Shown here: positions 13,142 through 28,244 of the stretch, piece after piece
Numbering within the stretch: position 1 is the first letter of the stretch
Layout: each line of letters starts with the position of its first letter
Notes under the pieces: generated by a model
Database searches by the model: none
Seen by the model: the letters and a program-made list of their open reading frames with translations, nothing else
What the model was told of the DNA's origin: nothing
NCBI GenBank assembly: GCA_016202875.1
Contig: JACQNX010000047.1
Coordinates: 1-37,602 of the forward strand
Length of the DNA stretch: 37,602 bases
DNA from: Candidatus Aenigmatarchaeota archaeon
Lineage (GTDB): Archaea > Aenigmatarchaeota > Aenigmatarchaeia > GW2011-AR5
Direction: 5' to 3'
Translations under genes and position numbers: made by a program

Positions 13142-14089
13142 CTAAGTTCTGTGCAAGGCCAAAAATTCTTTCGTTTGCCTGAAGAATTCTTTTAGCGTGA
13201 ATTCTGCAAGTTTTTTTGGTGCATCTTTCTCAACCGAGTCAATCAAGGACTGAAAATAGCGCTCTTTTTTTGCCGAAATGTTAAGTAACGGAAATCCCTC
13301 ATCCAGCAAAGTCTTATTCAATATCAGTCTGCATATTCGCTTGTTTCCGTCAAGAAATGGATGCGCTTTGTAAAGATTATAATGTGCTAAAGCCGCCTTT
13401 TCAATTGGATTCAGTCTTGTCAATTTATACCACTCAACAAACCCATCAATCAACCTGTTCAGTCTAGTATAATGCGGCGGTCTGTAAGCGATTTCTTTTC
13501 CAAGAGGATTTTTGGTATCCTGCATGTGCAAATAGACTTGTTGCTTCCTTAGTTTACCTGGAGTTTTTTCTTCAAAGCTTGCCATTATTGTCTTATGCAA
13601 ATCGAGCAAATATTTTTTGTCAAGTATATGGTTTTCTTTTATTGATTCGACAGCTTCTAGCATGTTTTTGCTGATCTGTTCGCGCGTGTTTAAATGCCTG
13701 TTTTTTCCAAAAGCGTTCTGGACATCTCTAAGGCTGACACTAACGTCCTCTGTTGTAAGTGTGGTCAGAGTAAAAAGAATTGTACTGTCAACTTCGTACT
13801 TTCGCTTTCGGGCGCCCGAAAGGGAGGCGAATATATTGTTAAAAGCGTCGCGAAAAAGCAACGCTTTTATCAGGTCGTCTTTTGAAATCAATTTGTTGTC
13901 ATAATGCTTTCCTGCTAATTTTGATATTATTTTCGATTTGAATGGATCTTCTATTTTTGCTACTTCACTTTGCAATGGTTTTTTCGTACCTATATATTTG
14001 CTGAATGTCTTTGACTTGTTCGAAACGAAATAGCTTAGGTCGAGGTAGTAGTATTTTTTCCCGCTAATGGTTTTTGTCCTCAGTGCCAT
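13142..14089 (-). CDS. Fic family protein with an N-terminal beta-sheet putative DNA-binding domain
   Basis: HPFLDGNKRICR Fic motif; N-terminus RTKTISGKKYYYL...FSKYIG. Confidence 0.88.
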   Translation of the reverse strand: MALRTKTISGKKYYYLDLSYFVSNKSKTFSKYIGTKKPLQSEVAKIEDPFKSKIISKLAGKHYDNKLISKDDLIKALLFRDAFNNIFASLSGARKRKYEVDSTILFTLTTLTTEDVSVSLRDVQNAFGKNRHLNTREQISKNMLEAVESIKENHILDKKYLLDLHKTIMASFEEKTPGKLRKQQVYLHMQDTKNPLGKEIAYRPPHYTRLNRLIDGFVEWYKLTRLNPIEKAALAHYNLYKAHPFLDGNKRICRLILNKTLLDEGFPLLNISAKKERYFQSLIDSVEKDAPKKLAEFTLKEFFRQTKEFLALHRT

Positions 14090-14095
14090 GCTCTA

Positions 14096-14180
14096 TTTAG
14101 GCTGATAAAAATATTTAAAACTATCAGCCTAAATTTTCTGTTGATTAGGCTGATAAAAGCCTCCAAGGTTATCGGCATAA
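14096..14180. promoter_or_regulatory. Two tandem inverted-repeat operators over the fic promoter
   Basis: TTTAGGCTGATA-N14-TATCAGCCTAAA (14096-14133, perfect arms) and TTAGGCTGATA-N14-TATCGGCATAA (14145-14180, 2 mismatches). The minus-strand TATA box TTTAAATA (14112-14119) lies in the first spacer. Confidence 0.75.
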
Positions 14181-14310
14181 ACGTATTCGTTGGATCAGTC
14201 AGTACCTCCGAAAGTGACCCGCAGCTGTGCTTGCTTATGGATTTGGCTCTTTGCAGGATAATCGTGGGCTATTAGTGGTTGAATCATAATTAGCAGAATT
14301 CGGTACCTGA

Positions 14311-14643
14311 TTATTCTTTTATGACCCTGCAAATAGAATTTTCAACTTCCGTTATCTTTTCTTTTTTGATCTTGCCTGCTCTGTATAGAATTAGACCCAG
14401 ATCGGCGGTAAATATCTTTCTTGGCCTTACATAGCTTGTTATTTTTAGTTTGCCTTCTCGAAAGTCTTTATATCTTAGCTCGATGGTTTCTGCGCCTTTT
14501 TTTGCTTTGCTTGTTATCTGGCACAGGATTACGTCTCCATATTCTCCTTTTGCTACAACGGCAGCAGGCCGCCTTTTGCTTGCCGAAAGGTCTGAGAAAG
14601 GAAAAGGCAAGACAACAACATCGCCTTTTACAAATCCTTCCAT
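14311..14643 (-). CDS. mazF: Type II toxin, PemK/MazF family endoribonuclease
   Basis: KGDVVVLPFPFSDLSASKRRPA...CQITS...L..TSYVR pattern; overlaps the antitoxin stop. Confidence 0.92.
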   Translation of the reverse strand: MEGFVKGDVVVLPFPFSDLSASKRRPAAVVAKGEYGDVILCQITSKAKKGAETIELRYKDFREGKLKITSYVRPRKIFTADLGLILYRAGKIKKEKITEVENSICRVIKE

Positions 14644-21243: not shown

Positions 21244-21294
21244 TCTTACAACTTGATAATTAGTTTTATAAAGCCATGTTTAACAAAAATACTT

Positions 21295-21565
21295 AACTCC
21301 AACTAAAACCAAGAAACCCTGCAAATTTTATGGAAACCAGACACCTTGATTTCTTGTGGAGGATGTTATTTGTGTTGGTTGCTTGTGGGCTTTCACGAAA
21401 AACGGACAACCTTCCTTTCTTATAACGATGTTATTTGAGGTATATTTATATGGCAGGTTGCAGGAGAAAGGAAGGGGTGTTGGCGATTTTTGAACATATA
21501 TGTTAAGAAACCTTGGTTTCTGATAGAGATAAGTTTATATATGCTGGAAGAGAAATAGGGGTGTT
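21295..21565. other. Probable replication origin (oriC) with ORB-like boxes upstream of cdc6
   Basis: About 370-bp non-coding gap before cdc6. ORB-like boxes against TCCAnnnGAAAnnAAGGGGT: TCCACAAGAAATCAAGGTGT (minus, 21341-21360), TGCAGGAGAAAGGAAGGGGT (plus, 21459-21478), TCTATCAGAAACCAAGGTTT (minus, 21508-21527), with weaker ones near 21298, 21407 and 21545; AT-rich stretches between them. Confidence 0.8.
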
Positions 21566-21612
21566 AGTGTTTTTATTTTTGTTGAACATTTTCATACAGG
21601 TGTGGGTGTGGA

Positions 21613-22872
21613 ATGGAATCAGTGACTACTACAACGGCAAATAACACATCACATATAGCACCGAGCATATCAGCTAATATCTTTTCTCAATACATACAGA
21701 ACGAAGGCGTATTCAAGGATAAAAAATTCCTTTCCTCTTCATTTATTCCACAAACAATACCACACAGGGAACAGGAAATACAGCACATAAGTTCTATGCT
21801 TGCCCCTGTCCTGAAAGGATACAACCCCAACAATGTCTTCATATACGGGACATGTGGAACAGGGAAAACAATCTGCACAAAATTTGTTCTTGGCCAGCTT
21901 GCGGATATCTCCAAAAACAAGGTCACAACACTTTATGTAAATTGCAAGATGAAAAAGGTTGCTGATACAGAGTACCGGCTGTTTGCACAGATGCTTAAAG
22001 ACCTGAATGAATTTGTGCCGGACACAGGGCTGCCCACCGACGTACTTTACAGGAAGTTCTTTGCCAGGATAGAAGAAAGAAAGATGCCTGTAATCATAGT
22101 CCTGGATGAGATAGACGTGCTGCTGAAAAAAGTAGGAGACGAGTTTCTTTATAACCTCACACGCATTAACACAGAGCTGGTAAGGTCGCATGTCACTGTC
22201 ATAGGCATAACAAACGACCTTGCGTGCAGGGATCGGTTAGATGCGCGGGTAAAGTCATCACTGTCAGAAGAAGAGATCATGTTCAAGCCGTACAATGCTG
22301 TGCAGTTAAAAGATATTCTTGGATTTAGGGCCACGATGGGATTCAGGGAAGGCGCTATTGAAGACGGAGCTCTGAGCAAGTGCGCGGCGCTTGCTGCGCA
22401 GGAACATGGAGATGCGCGCAGGGCTTTGGATCTGATGCGAGTGGCTGGAGAGGTAGCAGACCGTCTTGGTGAAAGGGTGGTCACAGAAAAGCATGTAGAC
22501 ATGGCAGAACAGAAGATAAGTTTAGACCGTATTACTGAGGCTGTGCGCATACAACCTAAACAATCACAGGCTGTCCTGTACTCTGCCCTGTTGCTGGAAA
22601 AAAGGAATAAATCACAGAAGAAGTGGACTGACTCACGTCTGCTTACGGGCGATGTTTATAATTCCTACAAAACTGTATGCGAGAAAGGCGGCATGAAAGC
22701 GCTGACACAGAGAAGGGTGAGCGATCTCATAAGCGAGCTGGACATGCTTGGCATAATAAATGCAAGGATTATTTCAAAAGGCAGACACGGCAGGACGCGG
22801 GAGATATCACTGGACATGGCAGAAACCACACTAGAGAAGGTTGAGAAACTCCTCATGGACAGGTTTGAATGA
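21613..22872 (+). CDS. cdc6: Orc1/Cdc6 replication initiator
   Basis: IPHREQEI, Walker A GTCGTGKT, Walker B VLDEID, HGDARRALDL, winged-helix LTQRRVSDLISELDMLG...GRHGRTR. Confidence 0.97.
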   Translation: MESVTTTTANNTSHIAPSISANIFSQYIQNEGVFKDKKFLSSSFIPQTIPHREQEIQHISSMLAPVLKGYNPNNVFIYGTCGTGKTICTKFVLGQLADISKNKVTTLYVNCKMKKVADTEYRLFAQMLKDLNEFVPDTGLPTDVLYRKFFARIEERKMPVIIVLDEIDVLLKKVGDEFLYNLTRINTELVRSHVTVIGITNDLACRDRLDARVKSSLSEEEIMFKPYNAVQLKDILGFRATMGFREGAIEDGALSKCAALAAQEHGDARRALDLMRVAGEVADRLGERVVTEKHVDMAEQKISLDRITEAVRIQPKQSQAVLYSALLLEKRNKSQKKWTDSRLLTGDVYNSYKTVCEKGGMKALTQRRVSDLISELDMLGIINARIISKGRHGRTREISLDMAETTLEKVEKLLMDRFE

Positions 22873-22935: not shown

Positions 22936-24036
22936 ATGGCAAACGCGGGGGCGGTGGAGATATTTTTCAAAAAAGGCAGGCTCCTTACCCCTGAGGCCCT
23001 TCGCTACCTGGAAAACAAGAATGCCGAGAACTTTTTATCAGAGAGCTCTGATCTTGTTGTGGATGTAGAAGACCTGCTTGCCAGGGAAGACAAGATACAC
23101 ATAATCAGAAACATAACAGGGAAAAAGAGCGAGGTCACCACAGCTGATATTGTTCGCTTTTACAATTCCAAATACGAGAAAATGAAAAACATAATTCTCT
23201 CACGCATGCAGAAGAATTTTATCTCGATAAACAAATTAGATACCCAGAGGAGCGAGGTTTGTGTCATCGGCATAGTCAGAGACATTAAGGGCAACGAAGG
23301 GAAGAAGAATATAGAGCTGGAAGATTCAACAGGGTCTGTAACAGTTGTGTTTGAGCCCAACCTTATAGAAGACCTGGAACTGGATGATGTTGTTGCTGTA
23401 CAGGGCATAGCTGCTGGGAAGGTTATGTTCGGCAAAAAAATACTATTTCCAGATGTTCCGCTACGGCAGCCGACAAAAGGCAGTGGGAAGGCATGCTTTA
23501 TCTCTGACCTGCATTTAGATGAGGCACCAAAGCAGGATCTGGAAAAATTTCTGCGCTGGCTTGAGGGGCAGGATACAAGATACCTTTTCGTAGTCGGCGA
23601 TATCGGCGACATCAATATTTTTGAATACCTGGTTGATGCTTACTGCAGAGATAAAAAGGTATTCGTAGCGATGGGCAAAGACGCAGAGGAGATGCCTGGC
23701 TTTCCATCAGAGCTCAAATCAAAAAATGTAATCGCTCTCAGTAACCCCGCACTGGTTGAAATAAATGGCATCAAAATCCTGGTTATAAACAATTTTGACA
23801 TCAAAATGTTGAGGAAAAGGCACCTCGGCAACATAAAACCCATACTTGAAGAAGACTTCATGGCACTAGAAGAACTGCCTGATATTGTGCATTGCGGGCA
23901 CAGCCATGAGGCGAGCATAAATAATTACAAATCCACGACAATAATTAATGCCGGCTCTTTACTCACAAATTTCAGACCGGTAATAGTGGACTTTGCCACG
24001 CGTGAATGCATGCAGGTCGATGTTGCAGGTTTGTAG
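22936..24036 (+). CDS. PolD small subunit (DP1)-like protein, shortened, exonuclease probably inactive
   Basis: DP1-type N-terminus (KGRLLTPEA), OB fold (IGIVRDI...ELEDSTG...DDVVAVQG..FPDVP) and phosphoesterase fold with SDLH, GD, RHL and GHSH, but GNHD replaced by GKDA and HG by NF. Confidence 0.85.
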   Translation: MANAGAVEIFFKKGRLLTPEALRYLENKNAENFLSESSDLVVDVEDLLAREDKIHIIRNITGKKSEVTTADIVRFYNSKYEKMKNIILSRMQKNFISINKLDTQRSEVCVIGIVRDIKGNEGKKNIELEDSTGSVTVVFEPNLIEDLELDDVVAVQGIAAGKVMFGKKILFPDVPLRQPTKGSGKACFISDLHLDEAPKQDLEKFLRWLEGQDTRYLFVVGDIGDINIFEYLVDAYCRDKKVFVAMGKDAEEMPGFPSELKSKNVIALSNPALVEINGIKILVINNFDIKMLRKRHLGNIKPILEEDFMALEELPDIVHCGHSHEASINNYKSTTIINAGSLLTNFRPVIVDFATRECMQVDVAGL

Positions 24037-24077: not shown

Positions 24078-27000
24078 ATGAAAATGCAGATAGTTGATGT
24101 GGATTATTTTTTAAACACAAACAAGCCAGTTGTGAGAATTTTTGGCAGGTCGCAGAATGGCAATGCTGTCTGCATCCTGTACGACCAACTGCTTCCCTAT
24201 TTTTATGTCAAATGTTCTGAAGAGCAGGCTGAAAGAATTAAGGGAATAAAAGAGGTGCGCAGCGTAGAAGACGCAGAGATGTACATACCAATAGGATATC
24301 AAGAAAAAAAGACCCTCCTCAAGAAAATCATTTTACTAAACCCGCAGGATGTGCCAGAAACACGGGACAGAATATCTGCTCTTGGTATCAGAGAGGTGTT
24401 TGAGGCGGACATCATGTTTAAATACAGATTTATGATTGACCATGGTCTTTTTGGCATGCAGTGGATAGATGCAGAATGCACAAAAGCCAACACAAAAGTT
24501 GCAAAGGTGCCGGCTTACTGTGCAACCACAATAAAACCAGTAGAACAAACAGGCAACGCAGAACTTAGAATACTCTCTTTTGACATAGAATGCGTTTCAG
24601 ATGATATCAAGAGAGCGCCTGACGCAAAGAAAGACCCTATAGTCATGATATCCATGGCATTCCACCCTGCGTACAAAGGCAAGAAAAATATTGTTTTTGT
24701 GGCCAAGCACGTTCTAGGAGAAAATACCAAGGGATTTGGTTCAGAAAAGAATATGCTAGAAGAATTTGTAAAGCTTATTGATGACTACGACCCTGATATA
24801 ATCACAGGTTATAATATCAACAATTTTGACTTGCCTTATTTAATGGAGAGGCTTAAGCACAATAAAATTCCCCTCAACATAGGACGATCGGACAAGCCTA
24901 TGTTCGGCAGGACAACGGGCATGACTACAGAGTTCGTAATACCTGGCAGGGTTGTTTTTGATCCTTACCAGATATTAAAGCGCGACCCATGGCTGAAATT
25001 CCAGCGCTATGACCTCAACACAGTGGCAAAGAAAATGCTGAATGAAGAGAAACACAATGTTGAATACAGCGAGATGGCAGCTCTTTGGGCGGGTTCGCGA
25101 GAAGGGCTGAGCAGATTTATAGAGTACGCACGAAAGGACGCTGACCTTTCATTAAGGCTGGTTGTAGAGAAAGGCCTGATGGACAAGTTCTACGAACTTT
25201 CAAAGATTTCTGGCGTTCTCCTGCAGGATGTTTTCGGAGGACAGACACGTCGGGTGGACACCATGATACTGCATGAATTCAAGAAAATGGACTTTGTCAT
25301 GCCGCTCAATCCCTCAAAATCAGACCTTATCAGAAGAGCAAAGGAGCGCGATAAAGAAGGGCTCAAGGGCGCAATAGTCATGGAGCCTAAAAAAGGACTG
25401 CACGCAGACGGCTGTGTCATTGTTCTGGATTTCAAGAGCTTGTACCCTTCGATAATGAGAACGTACAACATATCACCCGATACTTTATTACAGCAGGGCA
25501 ATGCACCACATGAGACATCGCCAACAGGGGCAAAATTTGTAGCTGCAGGAATACAGCAGGGCATTTTGCCTTCTCTGCTAACACAGCTTATAGAAACACG
25601 AAGCAAGATTAAAAAAGAAATGAAGGCCGCATCCGGCGAGAAGAAGAGGATTCTTAATGCAAAACAGCTCGCAATAAAGGACATGTCGAACAGCGTGCAT
25701 GCAAGCACAGATATAGTTGTTCAGGAACCTACAGGCAACTTGCACGTGTGTGAGATAGAAACGCTTTTCAACGAACTGGTGAAGGAGCACCCTGTAAAAA
25801 AAATCGGAGATACAGAGGTAATAGAACTTGACAGATGGCAGACATTAAGCGTAGATGGCAATAAATCATGCTTCAAACCTATGTACGCTATATCAAGGCA
25901 TAAGCATGCGGGCGAATTGACAAGGATCAAGACAGCAATGAGCGAAGTTATGATTACAGATGACCACAGCATCATGGCTATGGCAGGGAGGCAATCAAAC
26001 AGACAAAGAGAAAGCCAGTTTGATGGGCTTGTGGAAAAAGGCGGCAAGGAGGTTTCTGAAGAAGATATCATAGCTCAAGTCAGAAAAGTCTGTCTGCCGG
26101 AAAACGACGTTACATTTAACTGGCTTGAATTTTTAAAGACTTTACCAGAAGAAGAAATTTTAGATATATGTTTGTATATCCCTAAAAGCCTGCAGCTGAA
26201 TAAAAAAGGCTGGCTCAAAAACAGAGTAAAGATGCTTTCTGCATTCAATGGACCGGCAGATTCAGCAACTTTGCAGACGATTGTTGAACGACGTATACTG
26301 AGAAGCTCGGAGGGTGTTTTGATAAATAGAACAGGCTTAACAACAGTCGGCAATTGTGGCATTGTACCTGTATATGAGCCCACAGAAGACGGAGAGGCGC
26401 TGATCGATTTCTACGAAGATTTTACATATGCCAAGGAAGAACCACTGTATTACACACTTCCGATTACAGCTGCACAGAAACTGCCCAAATTTATTGAGCG
26501 GCATTCATTCGTGGCTGTCGGCGGAGCGCATCAAGGCCGCAGAAAGGTTCCTATTCACCTGCCTGTTACGGACGAACTTGCAGAACTTATAGGATGGTTT
26601 GTAGCAGAGGGCAGTACGTACAAGCGGGGTAATTCTTTCAGGTCAACAATATCCAATACAAATAAAAGCCATATCAGACGTATAACGTACCTGATCAAAA
26701 AATGTTTTGGTTACGACGCACGTATATTTAATAAAGATATAACAATGAACACAAAGCTGTTATATCTGTTCTTCAGGCATCTGTGCGGCTCATCCTCTTA
26801 TATGAAACAGGTACCGGATTTTATACTTAATTCCAACACGAAGATCCGCGAAGCATTTATGAAAGGTTACTATAGCGGCGATGGCAATGTAAAAGTGCAC
26901 CGTATTAATACAGTGAGTAAAACTCTGGCTGCACAGTTGAACGTCATGCTAAAAGAGTTCGGTGGCGTGCAGTATAATTATTTTGACGGGCTATACCGCA

Positions 27001-28244
27001 TATCAAGAAGACAGACTTCACACGGGAACAAAATAGTTTCCGGCGATCTTTTCGGGCAGAGGCCAAAGATATCACGATGCGCGTCTTCTGAATACGTGTA
27101 CGACCTTTCTGTCCGCGATACAGAAATGTTCGTAACTGCACAGGGCACAGTCTTGCACAATTCATTCTACGGATATTGTGGGTACACACGTGCGCGACTA
27201 TACAACATAGATGTCGCTGCTTCTATCACTGCGTATGGAAGAGAGAATTTGCAGAAAACGAAGAAACTCATAGAAGAAAACTTTGATGTAGAGGTTATTT
27301 ATGCGGACACAGATTCCGCATTTCTCAAAACAAAGACAATAAACTTAGATGAGGCAAAAAAAATAGGCGAAGGTATAGCCCGGTTTGTCACAGATAATCT
27401 GCCAGGCTATTTGGAACTGCAGTTTGAAAAAATATACAGGACGTTTATCATCCTTACAAAGAAAAGATATGCAGGGCTCAAGTACGAACTTGCAGGCGAT
27501 ACATGGACCAATGAAATAGAGATGCGTGGCATAGAGACTGTGAGAAGAGACTGGTGCCCGCTGGTTTCGCAGGTGATGCTAGATGTTCTGGACATTCTGC
27601 TTAAAGAAGGGGATTTGCAAAAAGCCATCGATGTTGTCAAAGATGTATTAGAAAAACTCCGCCATAACCAGATAGACTTGGACAGGCTTACAATAATAAA
27701 AGGCATTACAAAACATGTTGACAGCTATGAGGGACTGCTGCCACACATTGAACTGGCAAGAAAAATGACCATGAGAAACCCTCAGGCAGCACCAAGAATA
27801 GGAGACAGAATAGGATTTGTTATTATAAGGGGCAACCAACTGCTCTCAAAACGAGCTGAGGATCCGGAATATGTCAAGAAAAATAACATAGAAATTGATT
27901 CTGATTATTATATTCATAACCAGTTGCTGCCACCACTGGAAAGGATATTCACGTCGGTTGGCGTGGAGAAGAGCGAGATACTGGGCAGCGGCAGGCAAGT
28001 CAGCCTCGGAGATGTTATGAACGGCACAAAACGAAAAATGAAACATGACATAGACGTTCGGTATGACCATGCAGACAGCACAGATAAAAAAGAACAGCCG
28101 CTGCAGGGCTGGGAAGCGTTTGTGTGCAAAAAATGTGCCAAGAGTTTCAGGTCAATCCCGCTTCAAGGATCATGTGAATGCGGCGGCGAAATACTAATGA
28201 GCTATCATGGATCTGTGAGCAACAGGGCTGTTATTAACCAGTGA
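24078..28244 (+). CDS. polB: Family B DNA polymerase (intein-containing precursor) with a C-terminal DP2-like Zn finger
   Basis: Exo motifs FDIE, YNINNFD, YARKD; Pol motifs DFKSLYPS, K...N|SFYG, YADTDS, KKRY; C-terminal CKKC...CECGG. 1388 aa, 898 aa after intein removal. Confidence 0.96.
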   Translation: MKMQIVDVDYFLNTNKPVVRIFGRSQNGNAVCILYDQLLPYFYVKCSEEQAERIKGIKEVRSVEDAEMYIPIGYQEKKTLLKKIILLNPQDVPETRDRISALGIREVFEADIMFKYRFMIDHGLFGMQWIDAECTKANTKVAKVPAYCATTIKPVEQTGNAELRILSFDIECVSDDIKRAPDAKKDPIVMISMAFHPAYKGKKNIVFVAKHVLGENTKGFGSEKNMLEEFVKLIDDYDPDIITGYNINNFDLPYLMERLKHNKIPLNIGRSDKPMFGRTTGMTTEFVIPGRVVFDPYQILKRDPWLKFQRYDLNTVAKKMLNEEKHNVEYSEMAALWAGSREGLSRFIEYARKDADLSLRLVVEKGLMDKFYELSKISGVLLQDVFGGQTRRVDTMILHEFKKMDFVMPLNPSKSDLIRRAKERDKEGLKGAIVMEPKKGLHADGCVIVLDFKSLYPSIMRTYNISPDTLLQQGNAPHETSPTGAKFVAAGIQQGILPSLLTQLIETRSKIKKEMKAASGEKKRILNAKQLAIKDMSNSVHASTDIVVQEPTGNLHVCEIETLFNELVKEHPVKKIGDTEVIELDRWQTLSVDGNKSCFKPMYAISRHKHAGELTRIKTAMSEVMITDDHSIMAMAGRQSNRQRESQFDGLVEKGGKEVSEEDIIAQVRKVCLPENDVTFNWLEFLKTLPEEEILDICLYIPKSLQLNKKGWLKNRVKMLSAFNGPADSATLQTIVERRILRSSEGVLINRTGLTTVGNCGIVPVYEPTEDGEALIDFYEDFTYAKEEPLYYTLPITAAQKLPKFIERHSFVAVGGAHQGRRKVPIHLPVTDELAELIGWFVAEGSTYKRGNSFRSTISNTNKSHIRRITYLIKKCFGYDARIFNKDITMNTKLLYLFFRHLCGSSSYMKQVPDFILNSNTKIREAFMKGYYSGDGNVKVHRINTVSKTLAAQLNVMLKEFGGVQYNYFDGLYRISRRQTSHGNKIVSGDLFGQRPKISRCASSEYVYDLSVRDTEMFVTAQGTVLHNSFYGYCGYTRARLYNIDVAASITAYGRENLQKTKKLIEENFDVEVIYADTDSAFLKTKTINLDEAKKIGEGIARFVTDNLPGYLELQFEKIYRTFIILTKKRYAGLKYELAGDTWTNEIEMRGIETVRRDWCPLVSQVMLDVLDILLKEGDLQKAIDVVKDVLEKLRHNQIDLDRLTIIKGITKHVDSYEGLLPHIELARKMTMRNPQAAPRIGDRIGFVIIRGNQLLSKRAEDPEYVKKNNIEIDSDYYIHNQLLPPLERIFTSVGVEKSEILGSGRQVSLGDVMNGTKRKMKHDIDVRYDHADSTDKKEQPLQGWEAFVCKKCAKSFRSIPLQGSCECGGEILMSYHGSVSNRAVINQ
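25692..27161 (+). mobile_element. Intein with LAGLIDADG homing endonuclease in PolB motif B (490 aa)
   Basis: Interrupts KDMSN|SFYG; starts SVHAST, block B ITDDHS, LAGLIDADG-like LIGWFVAEG and FMKGYYSGDG, block F YVYDLSV, ends VLHN followed by Ser+1. Confidence 0.95.

Follow-up and report, generated by a model that had tools for sequence, protein, structure and literature searches.

A degenerate DP1 homologue encoded beside a zinc-tailed family B DNA polymerase in an Aenigmatarchaeota genome

The locus and its DP1-like product

We analysed a 37,602-nucleotide stretch of DNA (hereafter the window) from a Candidatus Aenigmatarchaeota archaeon (GenBank assembly GCA_016202875.1, contig JACQNX010000047.1), which contains a gene for a shortened homologue of DP1, the small subunit of PolD. 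This DP1-like gene begins 63 base pairs (bp) after an orc1/cdc6 initiator gene and ends 41 bp before a gene for a family B DNA polymerase (PolB), with all three on the + strand. Its product is very probably a degenerate DP1 of the Aenigmatarchaeota type, a non-proofreading accessory subunit of the PolB encoded next to it, resembling the B subunits of eukaryotic replicases. The decisive context for this reading is that the adjacent PolB is fused to a DP2-type C-terminal domain (CTD) and that DP2 itself is missing. The genes and the OB fold domain of the DP1-like protein are located as follows.

21613..22872, + strand: orc1/cdc6 initiator gene, 419 residues (Pfam Cdc6_C, E = 1.1e-27; Cdc6_lid, E = 3.3e-23; AAA)
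22936..24036, + strand: DP1-like small-subunit gene, 366 residues, comprising a helical N-terminal part, an OB fold and a degenerate phosphoesterase domain
23257..23409, + strand: core of the OB fold, residues 108–158 of the DP1-like protein (Pfam PF01336, E = 1.3e-6)
24078..28244, + strand: PolB gene, 1388 residues including an intein (Pfam DNA_pol_B, E = 1.7e-109; DNA_pol_B_exo1, E = 8.2e-41)

The reading frame at 22936..24036 is intact, and its product is a DP1 homologue, a member of the DP1/B-subunit superfamily that combines an OB fold with a calcineurin-like phosphoesterase fold. The NCBIfam equivalog model for DP1 (NF003118) matches it with an E-value of 1.7e-46 and 159 bits, against a curated cut-off of 445 bits; DP1 chains of solved Pyrococcus abyssi structures match at E = 2.7e-17, and Pfam places Metallophos_2 at residues 187–344. 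Homologues with 46–55% sequence identity are titled Candidatus Aenigmarchaeota or Aenigmatarchaeota. An AlphaFold2 model, built on 69 relatives, has a pLDDT of 92.3 and a pTM of 0.86. The best Foldseek match of this model is P. abyssi DP1 (9f2a_A; E = 1.8e-26, TMq 0.72, 22% identity), followed by the eukaryotic B subunits of Pol epsilon, delta, zeta and alpha (TMq 0.56–0.67, 13–15% identity). A closer relationship to the eukaryotic B subunits than to DP1, which was also considered, is rejected by these figures.

Erosion of the active site

Two sets of sequences were used for comparison, aligned by MAFFT with the --auto and --add options. The canonical set consists of 54 DP1 proteins of 450–640 residues, taken from the best 150 of 947 matches (E ≤ 0.001) among 1.84 billion representatives. 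The family set consists of 117 full-length relatives of the window protein, out of 120 listed, with three shorter than 340 residues left out. The seven metal ligands of P. abyssi DP1 are reported to be D363, H365, D407, N453, H500, H563 and H565, with H451 as the proton donor (Sauguet et al. 2016, PMC4996933). The index of the solved chain runs three behind the ligand numbering of that paper, which by our counting would make "H451" the residue immediately after the ligand Asn. Each of these eight catalytic-site residues is conserved in at least 49 of the 54 canonical DP1 sequences. The equivalent segments of the window protein, as placed by alignment with the canonical set, are the following.

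23503..23514, + strand: motif I, SDLH, residues 190–193, kept
23596..23601, + strand: motif II, GD, residues 221–222, kept
23671..23685, + strand: degenerate motif III, MGKDA (MGK-D against the canonical PGNHD), residues 246–250, with Asn replaced by Lys and the His absent
23785..23793, + strand: motif IV position, INN, residues 284–286, with N285 at the position of H500 of P. abyssi DP1 and the metal-ligand His lost
23896..23907, + strand: motif V, GHSH, residues 321–324, kept

A HMMER alignment to P. abyssi DP1 agrees for motifs I, IV and V, and RHL is retained as KRHLG (residues 294–297). The catalytic pattern of the window protein is therefore D H D K - N H H, with five of the eight residues left. 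All five are metal ligands (D191, H193, D222, H322 and H324), whereas the ligand Asn, the His of motif IV and the proton-donor His are gone. The protein is also considerably shorter than its canonical counterparts (median length 363 residues in the family, compared to 503.5 in the canonical set). Four larger deletions are seen relative to the canonical columns: residue 48 is followed by a gap of about 31 columns, residue 226 by one of 20, residue 288 by one of 23 and residue 349 by one of 13. The second of these removes the loop following GDxxD, and the third follows the motif IV position. Judged by residue numbers, the deleted loop after GD would include Y415 of P. abyssi DP1, which binds the base (PMC4996933), and F589 and V593 probably fall within the last deletion.

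A sequence-only reading of this DNA had described a DP1 homologue shortened to only 366 residues, in which SDLH, GD, RHL and GHxH are kept, the loop after GD is deleted, PGNHD reads MGKDA and YHG reads NNF. The model, structure and Foldseek matches, the lengths and the alignment with the canonical set bear out this description in full. That reading had further proposed that the protein has no 3'–5' exonuclease activity. This is supported on sequence grounds: no such activity is expected of a protein that has lost its proton-donor His along with two of seven metal ligands. The combination that marks an active PolD DP1 exonuclease, namely all seven ligands and the motif III His in a genome that encodes DP2, is not found in the window protein and its genome.

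The loss of the motif III His is a property of the whole family, as this residue is found in none of the 117 members, compared to 54 of 54 canonical DP1 sequences. At the other seven catalytic positions, the number of members that retain the residue ranges from 36 to 101 of 117. The corresponding ligand columns are no more conserved than the average column (0.651 vs. 0.614), and the patterns of individual sequences are strongly bimodal, with all seven ligands in 35 members and none or one in 19. Ligand retention thus ranges from 7/7 to 0/7 across the family, the window protein standing at 5/7. A congener with 81% identity has the pattern DHAK-NHH, having lost the bridging Asp that is still present in the window protein, and sister genera retain only 0–3 of the eight residues while the gene itself stays conserved. 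In a tree built with FastTree, a quick method, members with seven ligands are scattered over deep branches; the long-branch warning for this tree concerns only the join to the outgroup. The window protein belongs to a well-supported clade of 29 members, of which 28 have at most four of the seven ligands, and it is the least eroded of them. All eight members of the sister clade have all seven. At least three changes of ligand state are forced by supported branches, and parsimony gives 11. Given the erosion in this clade and the missing bridging Asp of the congener, the DxH, GD and GHxH residues that survive in the window protein are best read as relics.

Short DP1-like proteins that are more distant form a second set (P0156, P0159, P0161, P0163, P0167, P0173 and similar). 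These proteins have 375–400 residues and 26–35% identity, and lack the motif III His (GE.D or GN.D) as well as the loop after GD, but retain the insertion after motif IV.

The series of family members offers a tentative evolutionary scenario, which we regard as possible though doubtful. Aenigmatarchaeota may hold intermediates between an active DP1 and a B subunit of the eukaryotic type, in which the motif III His was lost once, the two-metal site was kept in many lineages, and the site was later dismantled independently in several lines. Should selection be acting on the intact sites, the subunit without the His would keep a metal-dependent role, either structural or in holding the primer 3' end, that has become dispensable in the clade of the window protein.

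The alternative that comes closest to surviving is that nuclease or phosphoesterase function has been retained, the remaining site (D191, H193, D222 and H324, together with H322) working with another proton donor in a second, weaker editing or end-processing activity. The five retained ligands and the seven-ligand members on deep branches, which have kept their metal site despite lacking the His, are in line with this idea. The H451A variant of P. abyssi DP1, which is reported to bind both metals still (PMC6355029), argues in the same direction, although the same change abolishes proofreading and yields an exonuclease-deficient PolD (PMC6355029, PMC4996933). The two ligands lost from the window protein (Asn to Lys and His to Asn) both belong to the second metal, however, and its nearest relative has in addition lost the Asp that bridges the two. 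The sister genera with 0–3 residues, the average conservation of the ligand columns and the deletion of the loop expected to hold Y415 also speak against a site kept for catalysis. We therefore consider a residual nuclease improbable and favour a non-proofreading subunit of PolB.

The neighbouring polymerase, the missing DP2 and the predicted complex

The arrangement seen in the window recurs widely, though not universally, in the order to which this genome belongs. Most relatives have the DP1-like gene flanked by orc1/cdc6 and PolB, with orc1/cdc6 upstream of it in 12 of the 12 loci inspected. In 29 of the 35 genomes with a DP1-like gene, this gene is located directly upstream of PolB on the same strand. 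In the remaining six, it is directly downstream of PolB in one (G030, with the order reversed), on the same contig but 6–18 kb away in two (G028:C35 and G039:C53), and on a different contig in three (G040, G026 and G023).

The window PolB is the only family B polymerase found by a search of this genome, which is 77.7% complete. It contains the strings FDIE at 168, NINNFD at 246, YARKD at 350, DFKSLYPS at 451 and DTD at 1077, which we take to be the intact 3'–5' exonuclease and polymerase motifs of the enzyme itself. Two further elements distinguish this polymerase.

25692..27161, + strand: intein with a LAGLIDADG endonuclease, 490 residues (PolB residues 539–1028), inserted in the K..NS|FYG motif
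28104..28241, + strand: C-terminal C4 zinc ribbon resembling the DP2 CTD, PolB residues 1343–1388, with Cys 1350, 1353, 1366 and 1368

The intein was identified by the TIGR models for intein N- and C-termini, by Pfam LAGLIDADG_3 and Intein_splicing, and by the gap left in the alignment with the intein-free ortholog from a genome of the same genus (G001). It begins with Ser, ends with His-Asn, and is followed by Ser. Among the relatives, only G005 and G026 have a PolB of similar length, judged by the length of the open frame.

The zinc ribbon links this polymerase to DP2. A segment of 33 residues of the tail (PolB residues 1348–1380) matches positions 1267–1301 of the 1350 positions of the DP2 model NF011302, that is, its C-terminus, with an E-value of 1.4e-5, and the tail also matches the DP2 model TIGR00354 (E = 1.1e-4). 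The C4 motif is present in all 29 PolB tails that could be extracted from the loci of 30 relatives (one locus gave no tail), and the family consensus reads W-E-x-F-V-C-x-K-C-x-K-S-Y-R-R-M-P-L-x-G-x-C-E-C-G-G. The tail contains a single C4 ribbon behind a variable, gap-rich linker, and lacks the two Cys motifs and the helical bundle of the eukaryotic CTD. The ribbon loop (window positions 28149–28169, PolB residues 1358–1364) reads FRS[IV]PL in the three loci of the window's genus, compared to YRRMPL in most relatives.

A second PolB paralog of about 770–810 residues, 30–36% identical, was observed in several relatives (G030:C2, G017:C52, G014:C25, G010:C1, G003:C14, G024:C12, G020:C1 and G005:C2); its alignment stops before the zinc tail. 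This paralog was not found in the window's genome (78% complete).

Searches for DP2 were negative in this lineage. A full-length search with TIGR00354 returned the PolB tail as its sole match in the window's own genome, and the DP2 N-terminal family PF03833 was not found in that genome either, at its completeness of 77.7%. Across the order, PF03833 is found in 0 of 41 genomes, including 0 of the 13 of high quality. In a phylum-wide sample of 151 genomes, DP2 was found in eight, comprising all seven genomes of one family of the same class (f13) and one of the 31 genomes of another family (f18). The four f13 genomes examined encode a canonical DP1 with SDxH, GD and its loop, PGNHD, YHG and its insertion, and GHLH; their sole PolB match is a distant paralog, with an alignment that ends before the zinc tail. 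The f18 genome (G120) has a short DP1-like gene as well as a canonical DP1–DP2 pair; the contig that carries this pair measures about 3 kb and may be foreign, through either contamination or transfer. Within the phylum, DP2 thus goes with a canonical DP1 and a tailless PolB, whereas genomes without DP2 have the short, His-less DP1 and the tailed PolB. The genomes contrasted here are kin, so that the pattern represents one or a few events and not a statistic.

The structure of a complex between the DP1-like protein and the last 66 residues of PolB was predicted using a separate alignment for each chain. The complex score is 0.76, compared to 0.00 for the best of three controls; this mark is attained by 116 of 157 solved complexes and by two of 215 mismatched pairs. 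Contact agreement between runs is at least 92%, and the partner has a pLDDT of at least 74. In the predicted complex, the ribbon loop RSIPLQG (PolB residues 1358–1364), with L1362 as its hub, is located between the helix 63–80, residues of the OB fold and residues 301/303 of the DP1-like protein. The OB residues of the predicted interface are 113–116, 129–134 and 149–150. Among all interface residues, only E129, D130 and D150 stand out as near-invariant (at least 98% conserved in the 117 family members), and they are located in the predicted binding groove. In P. abyssi PolD, the basic loop of the DP2 Zn-III site docks in an acidic groove between the OB and phosphoesterase domains of DP1 (Raia et al. 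2019, PMC6355029), and the groove predicted here for the RSIPLQG loop is at the same place.

It could be argued that the product is a metallophosphoesterase standing on its own and unrelated to replication, as relatives carry the NCBI title "metallophosphoesterase family protein" and Pfam shows only Metallophos_2 and the OB fold. We consider this very unlikely, since the full-length architecture and the best matches in sequence and fold are those of DP1, the gene lies between those for Orc1/Cdc6 and PolB in most relatives, a complex with the PolB tail is predicted, and a yeast two-hybrid result has been published for the lineage (PMC12680538).

The ratio of nonsynonymous to synonymous substitution rates (dN/dS) of the DP1-like gene is 0.133 against its closest relative (81% identity, dS 0.79), compared to 0.073 for cdc6 and 0.088 for the N-terminal part of PolB in the same comparison; more distant pairs are saturated at synonymous sites. 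Full-length orthologs without stop codons, 41–81% identical, are present in 35 of the 41 genomes of the order and in all 13 of high quality. Among the 117 family members, 28 positions are at least 97% conserved, and none of these is a catalytic residue. The DP1-like gene is under strong purifying selection and is not decaying. A pseudogene left behind after the loss of PolD, to which the lost catalytic residues, the deleted loops and the missing DP2 might point, is rejected by the intact frame, a dN/dS similar to those of its neighbours, the conservation among relatives and the confident AlphaFold2 model, and deserves practically no credence. The sequence-only reading, which had taken the intact frame as an argument against simple decay and proposed a dN/dS comparison as a check, is confirmed on this point. 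Its description of the protein as a structural subunit likewise gains support from the low dN/dS, the presence of the gene in 35 of 41 genomes and the predicted complex with the PolB tail.

The other genes of the window are ordinary archaeal housekeeping genes, including those for the mevalonate pathway, Hjc, SecDF and STT3; thus, the orc1/cdc6–DP1-like–PolB row is chromosomal and not part of a mobile element. A gene with a Fic/DOC domain (E = 1.1e-18) and a gene for a PemK/MazF-like toxin (E = 1e-9) are found close together at 13145–14643 on the - strand. Upstream of orc1/cdc6, an inverted pair of TTTTTGTTRAACAT is located at 21276–21289 (- strand) and 21576–21589 (+ strand), flanking a 370-bp spacer. 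This pattern has two matches where 0.09 would be expected, and two or more are seen in one of 100 shuffles. No exact copy of the TTTTTGTTRAACAT pattern was seen in the other 52 loci, a set in which this region is often not covered. A direct pair of AGGGGTGTT.G.G.TTTT is located at 21473 and 21557, also upstream of orc1/cdc6. Both pairs may be elements of a replication origin resembling origin recognition boxes.

A proposed B-subunit-like partner of PolB, and known systems

The observations above are consistent with the following model. After splicing of the intein, PolB would carry out both synthesis and proofreading by itself. The RSIPLQG loop of its ribbon would plug into the acidic groove between the OB and phosphoesterase domains of the DP1-like protein, lined by E129, D130 and D150, as the Zn-III loop of DP2 does in PolD. 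The DP1-like protein would then be a scaffold connecting the polymerase with other parts of the replisome, as the B subunits do in eukaryotes, and the remaining DxH, GD and GHxH residues would have no further catalytic duty.

Several points weigh against this model or parts of it. The scaffold role toward other replisome parts is drawn by analogy. With five of the seven ligands remaining, binding of one metal or a weak residual activity is possible. At 77.7% completeness, the window's genome may encode a DP2 that escaped the search. Taken together, the predicted interface residues are no more conserved than random residues (mean 0.650 vs. 0.614, with 2311 of 10,000 random sets reaching this value). 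One of the two Arg residues of the ribbon loop, which according to PMC6355029 are docked in the groove, is replaced by Ser in three of the 29 tails, those of the window's genus. Finally, the high score of the complex, which was predicted with self-made alignments, may reflect its likeness to solved complexes (DP1 with the DP2 CTD, and the B subunits of Pol alpha and Pol epsilon with their CTDs) rather than binding by this particular copy.

Among the better-known systems with which the DP1-like protein can be compared, the Mre11 nuclease has the same phosphoesterase motifs, and H85 of Pyrococcus furiosus Mre11 is described as the equivalent proton donor (PMC4996933). Mre11 has no OB insertion and no polymerase partner, and is not a close relative. 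Canonical DP1, as in the P. abyssi structures (PDB 5IHE, 6T8H and 9F2A), shares with the window protein an OB fold inserted in a calcineurin-like phosphoesterase fold. In comparison, the window protein is about 140 residues shorter, has the four larger deletions, lacks the proton-donor His and two ligands, and is paired with PolB instead of DP2.

The eukaryotic B subunits (p70/Pol12 of Pol alpha, p50/Pol31 of Pol delta and p59/Dpb2 of Pol epsilon) share the non-catalytic combination of OB and phosphoesterase folds. They are likewise bound to the zinc-containing CTD of a family B polymerase with a proofreading activity of its own, although the pairing in the present case is predicted. Whereas the window PolB has a single ribbon, the CTD of the eukaryotic polymerases contains a helical bundle together with two Cys motifs, CysA and CysB. 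According to PMC4996933, the eukaryotic B subunits have none of the catalytic residues, whereas the window protein keeps five of eight and some of its relatives keep none. The sequence-only reading had placed the protein part-way towards the eukaryotic state, which is an apt description in this light. The origin of the two-subunit eukaryotic replicases (Pol alpha, delta and epsilon, each with a B subunit) from PolD is best modelled in archaea by an inactivated DP1 paired with a PolB whose zinc tail derives from DP2. This point is already in print, and the window provides another clear example of it, not a discovery.

Baldrarchaeia, with PolB3-DP2CTD and DP1, are said in PMC12680538 to be the only other archaeal lineage that lacks DP2 yet has DP1. 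They belong to a different phylum (Asgard), and their CTD is full-length and nearer to the eukaryotic one; they are compared here by their published description.

The closest match is the B6-aenigma1 system. Kazlauskas et al. (2020) described a group of Aenigmarchaeota PolBs, B6, that bear one ("B6-aenigma1") or two zinc motifs, and reported that DP2 is missing from most of the phylum (PMC7544198). They proposed that inactivation of DP1 was affordable, as these PolBs proofread by themselves, and that a group of this kind may have given rise to the eukaryotic B subunits. A paper published in 2025 in Nat Ecol Evol described the Aenigmatarchaeota PolB tail as a degenerate DP2CTD, reassigned the forms with two motifs to Baldrarchaeia contigs misassembled into Aenigmatarchaeota metagenome-assembled genomes, and presented AlphaFold3 models and yeast two-hybrid interactions of DP1 with PolB-DP2CTD in Aenigmatarchaeota and Baldrarchaeia (PMC12680538). 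Our literature searches found no biochemical assay of an Aenigmatarchaeota DP1.

To these accounts, the present analysis adds a series of stages in the residue-level erosion of the active site, a modest contribution that published figures or supplements may already show, as well as the contrast between genomes with and without DP2 within the phylum and a set of interface residues that can be tested. In all essential respects, the window agrees with the B6-aenigma1 system as described in PMC7544198 and PMC12680538: the relatives are Aenigmatarchaeota, the DP1 is short and inactive, with a degraded site in a lineage without DP2, the PolB bears a single zinc motif of the DP2 type, and the role proposed here for the pair is also the one put forward in these papers. 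The window copy additionally belongs to a clade in which the metal ligands are eroding as well. Thus, the system encoded in the window is an instance of the published Aenigmatarchaeota system and is already known.

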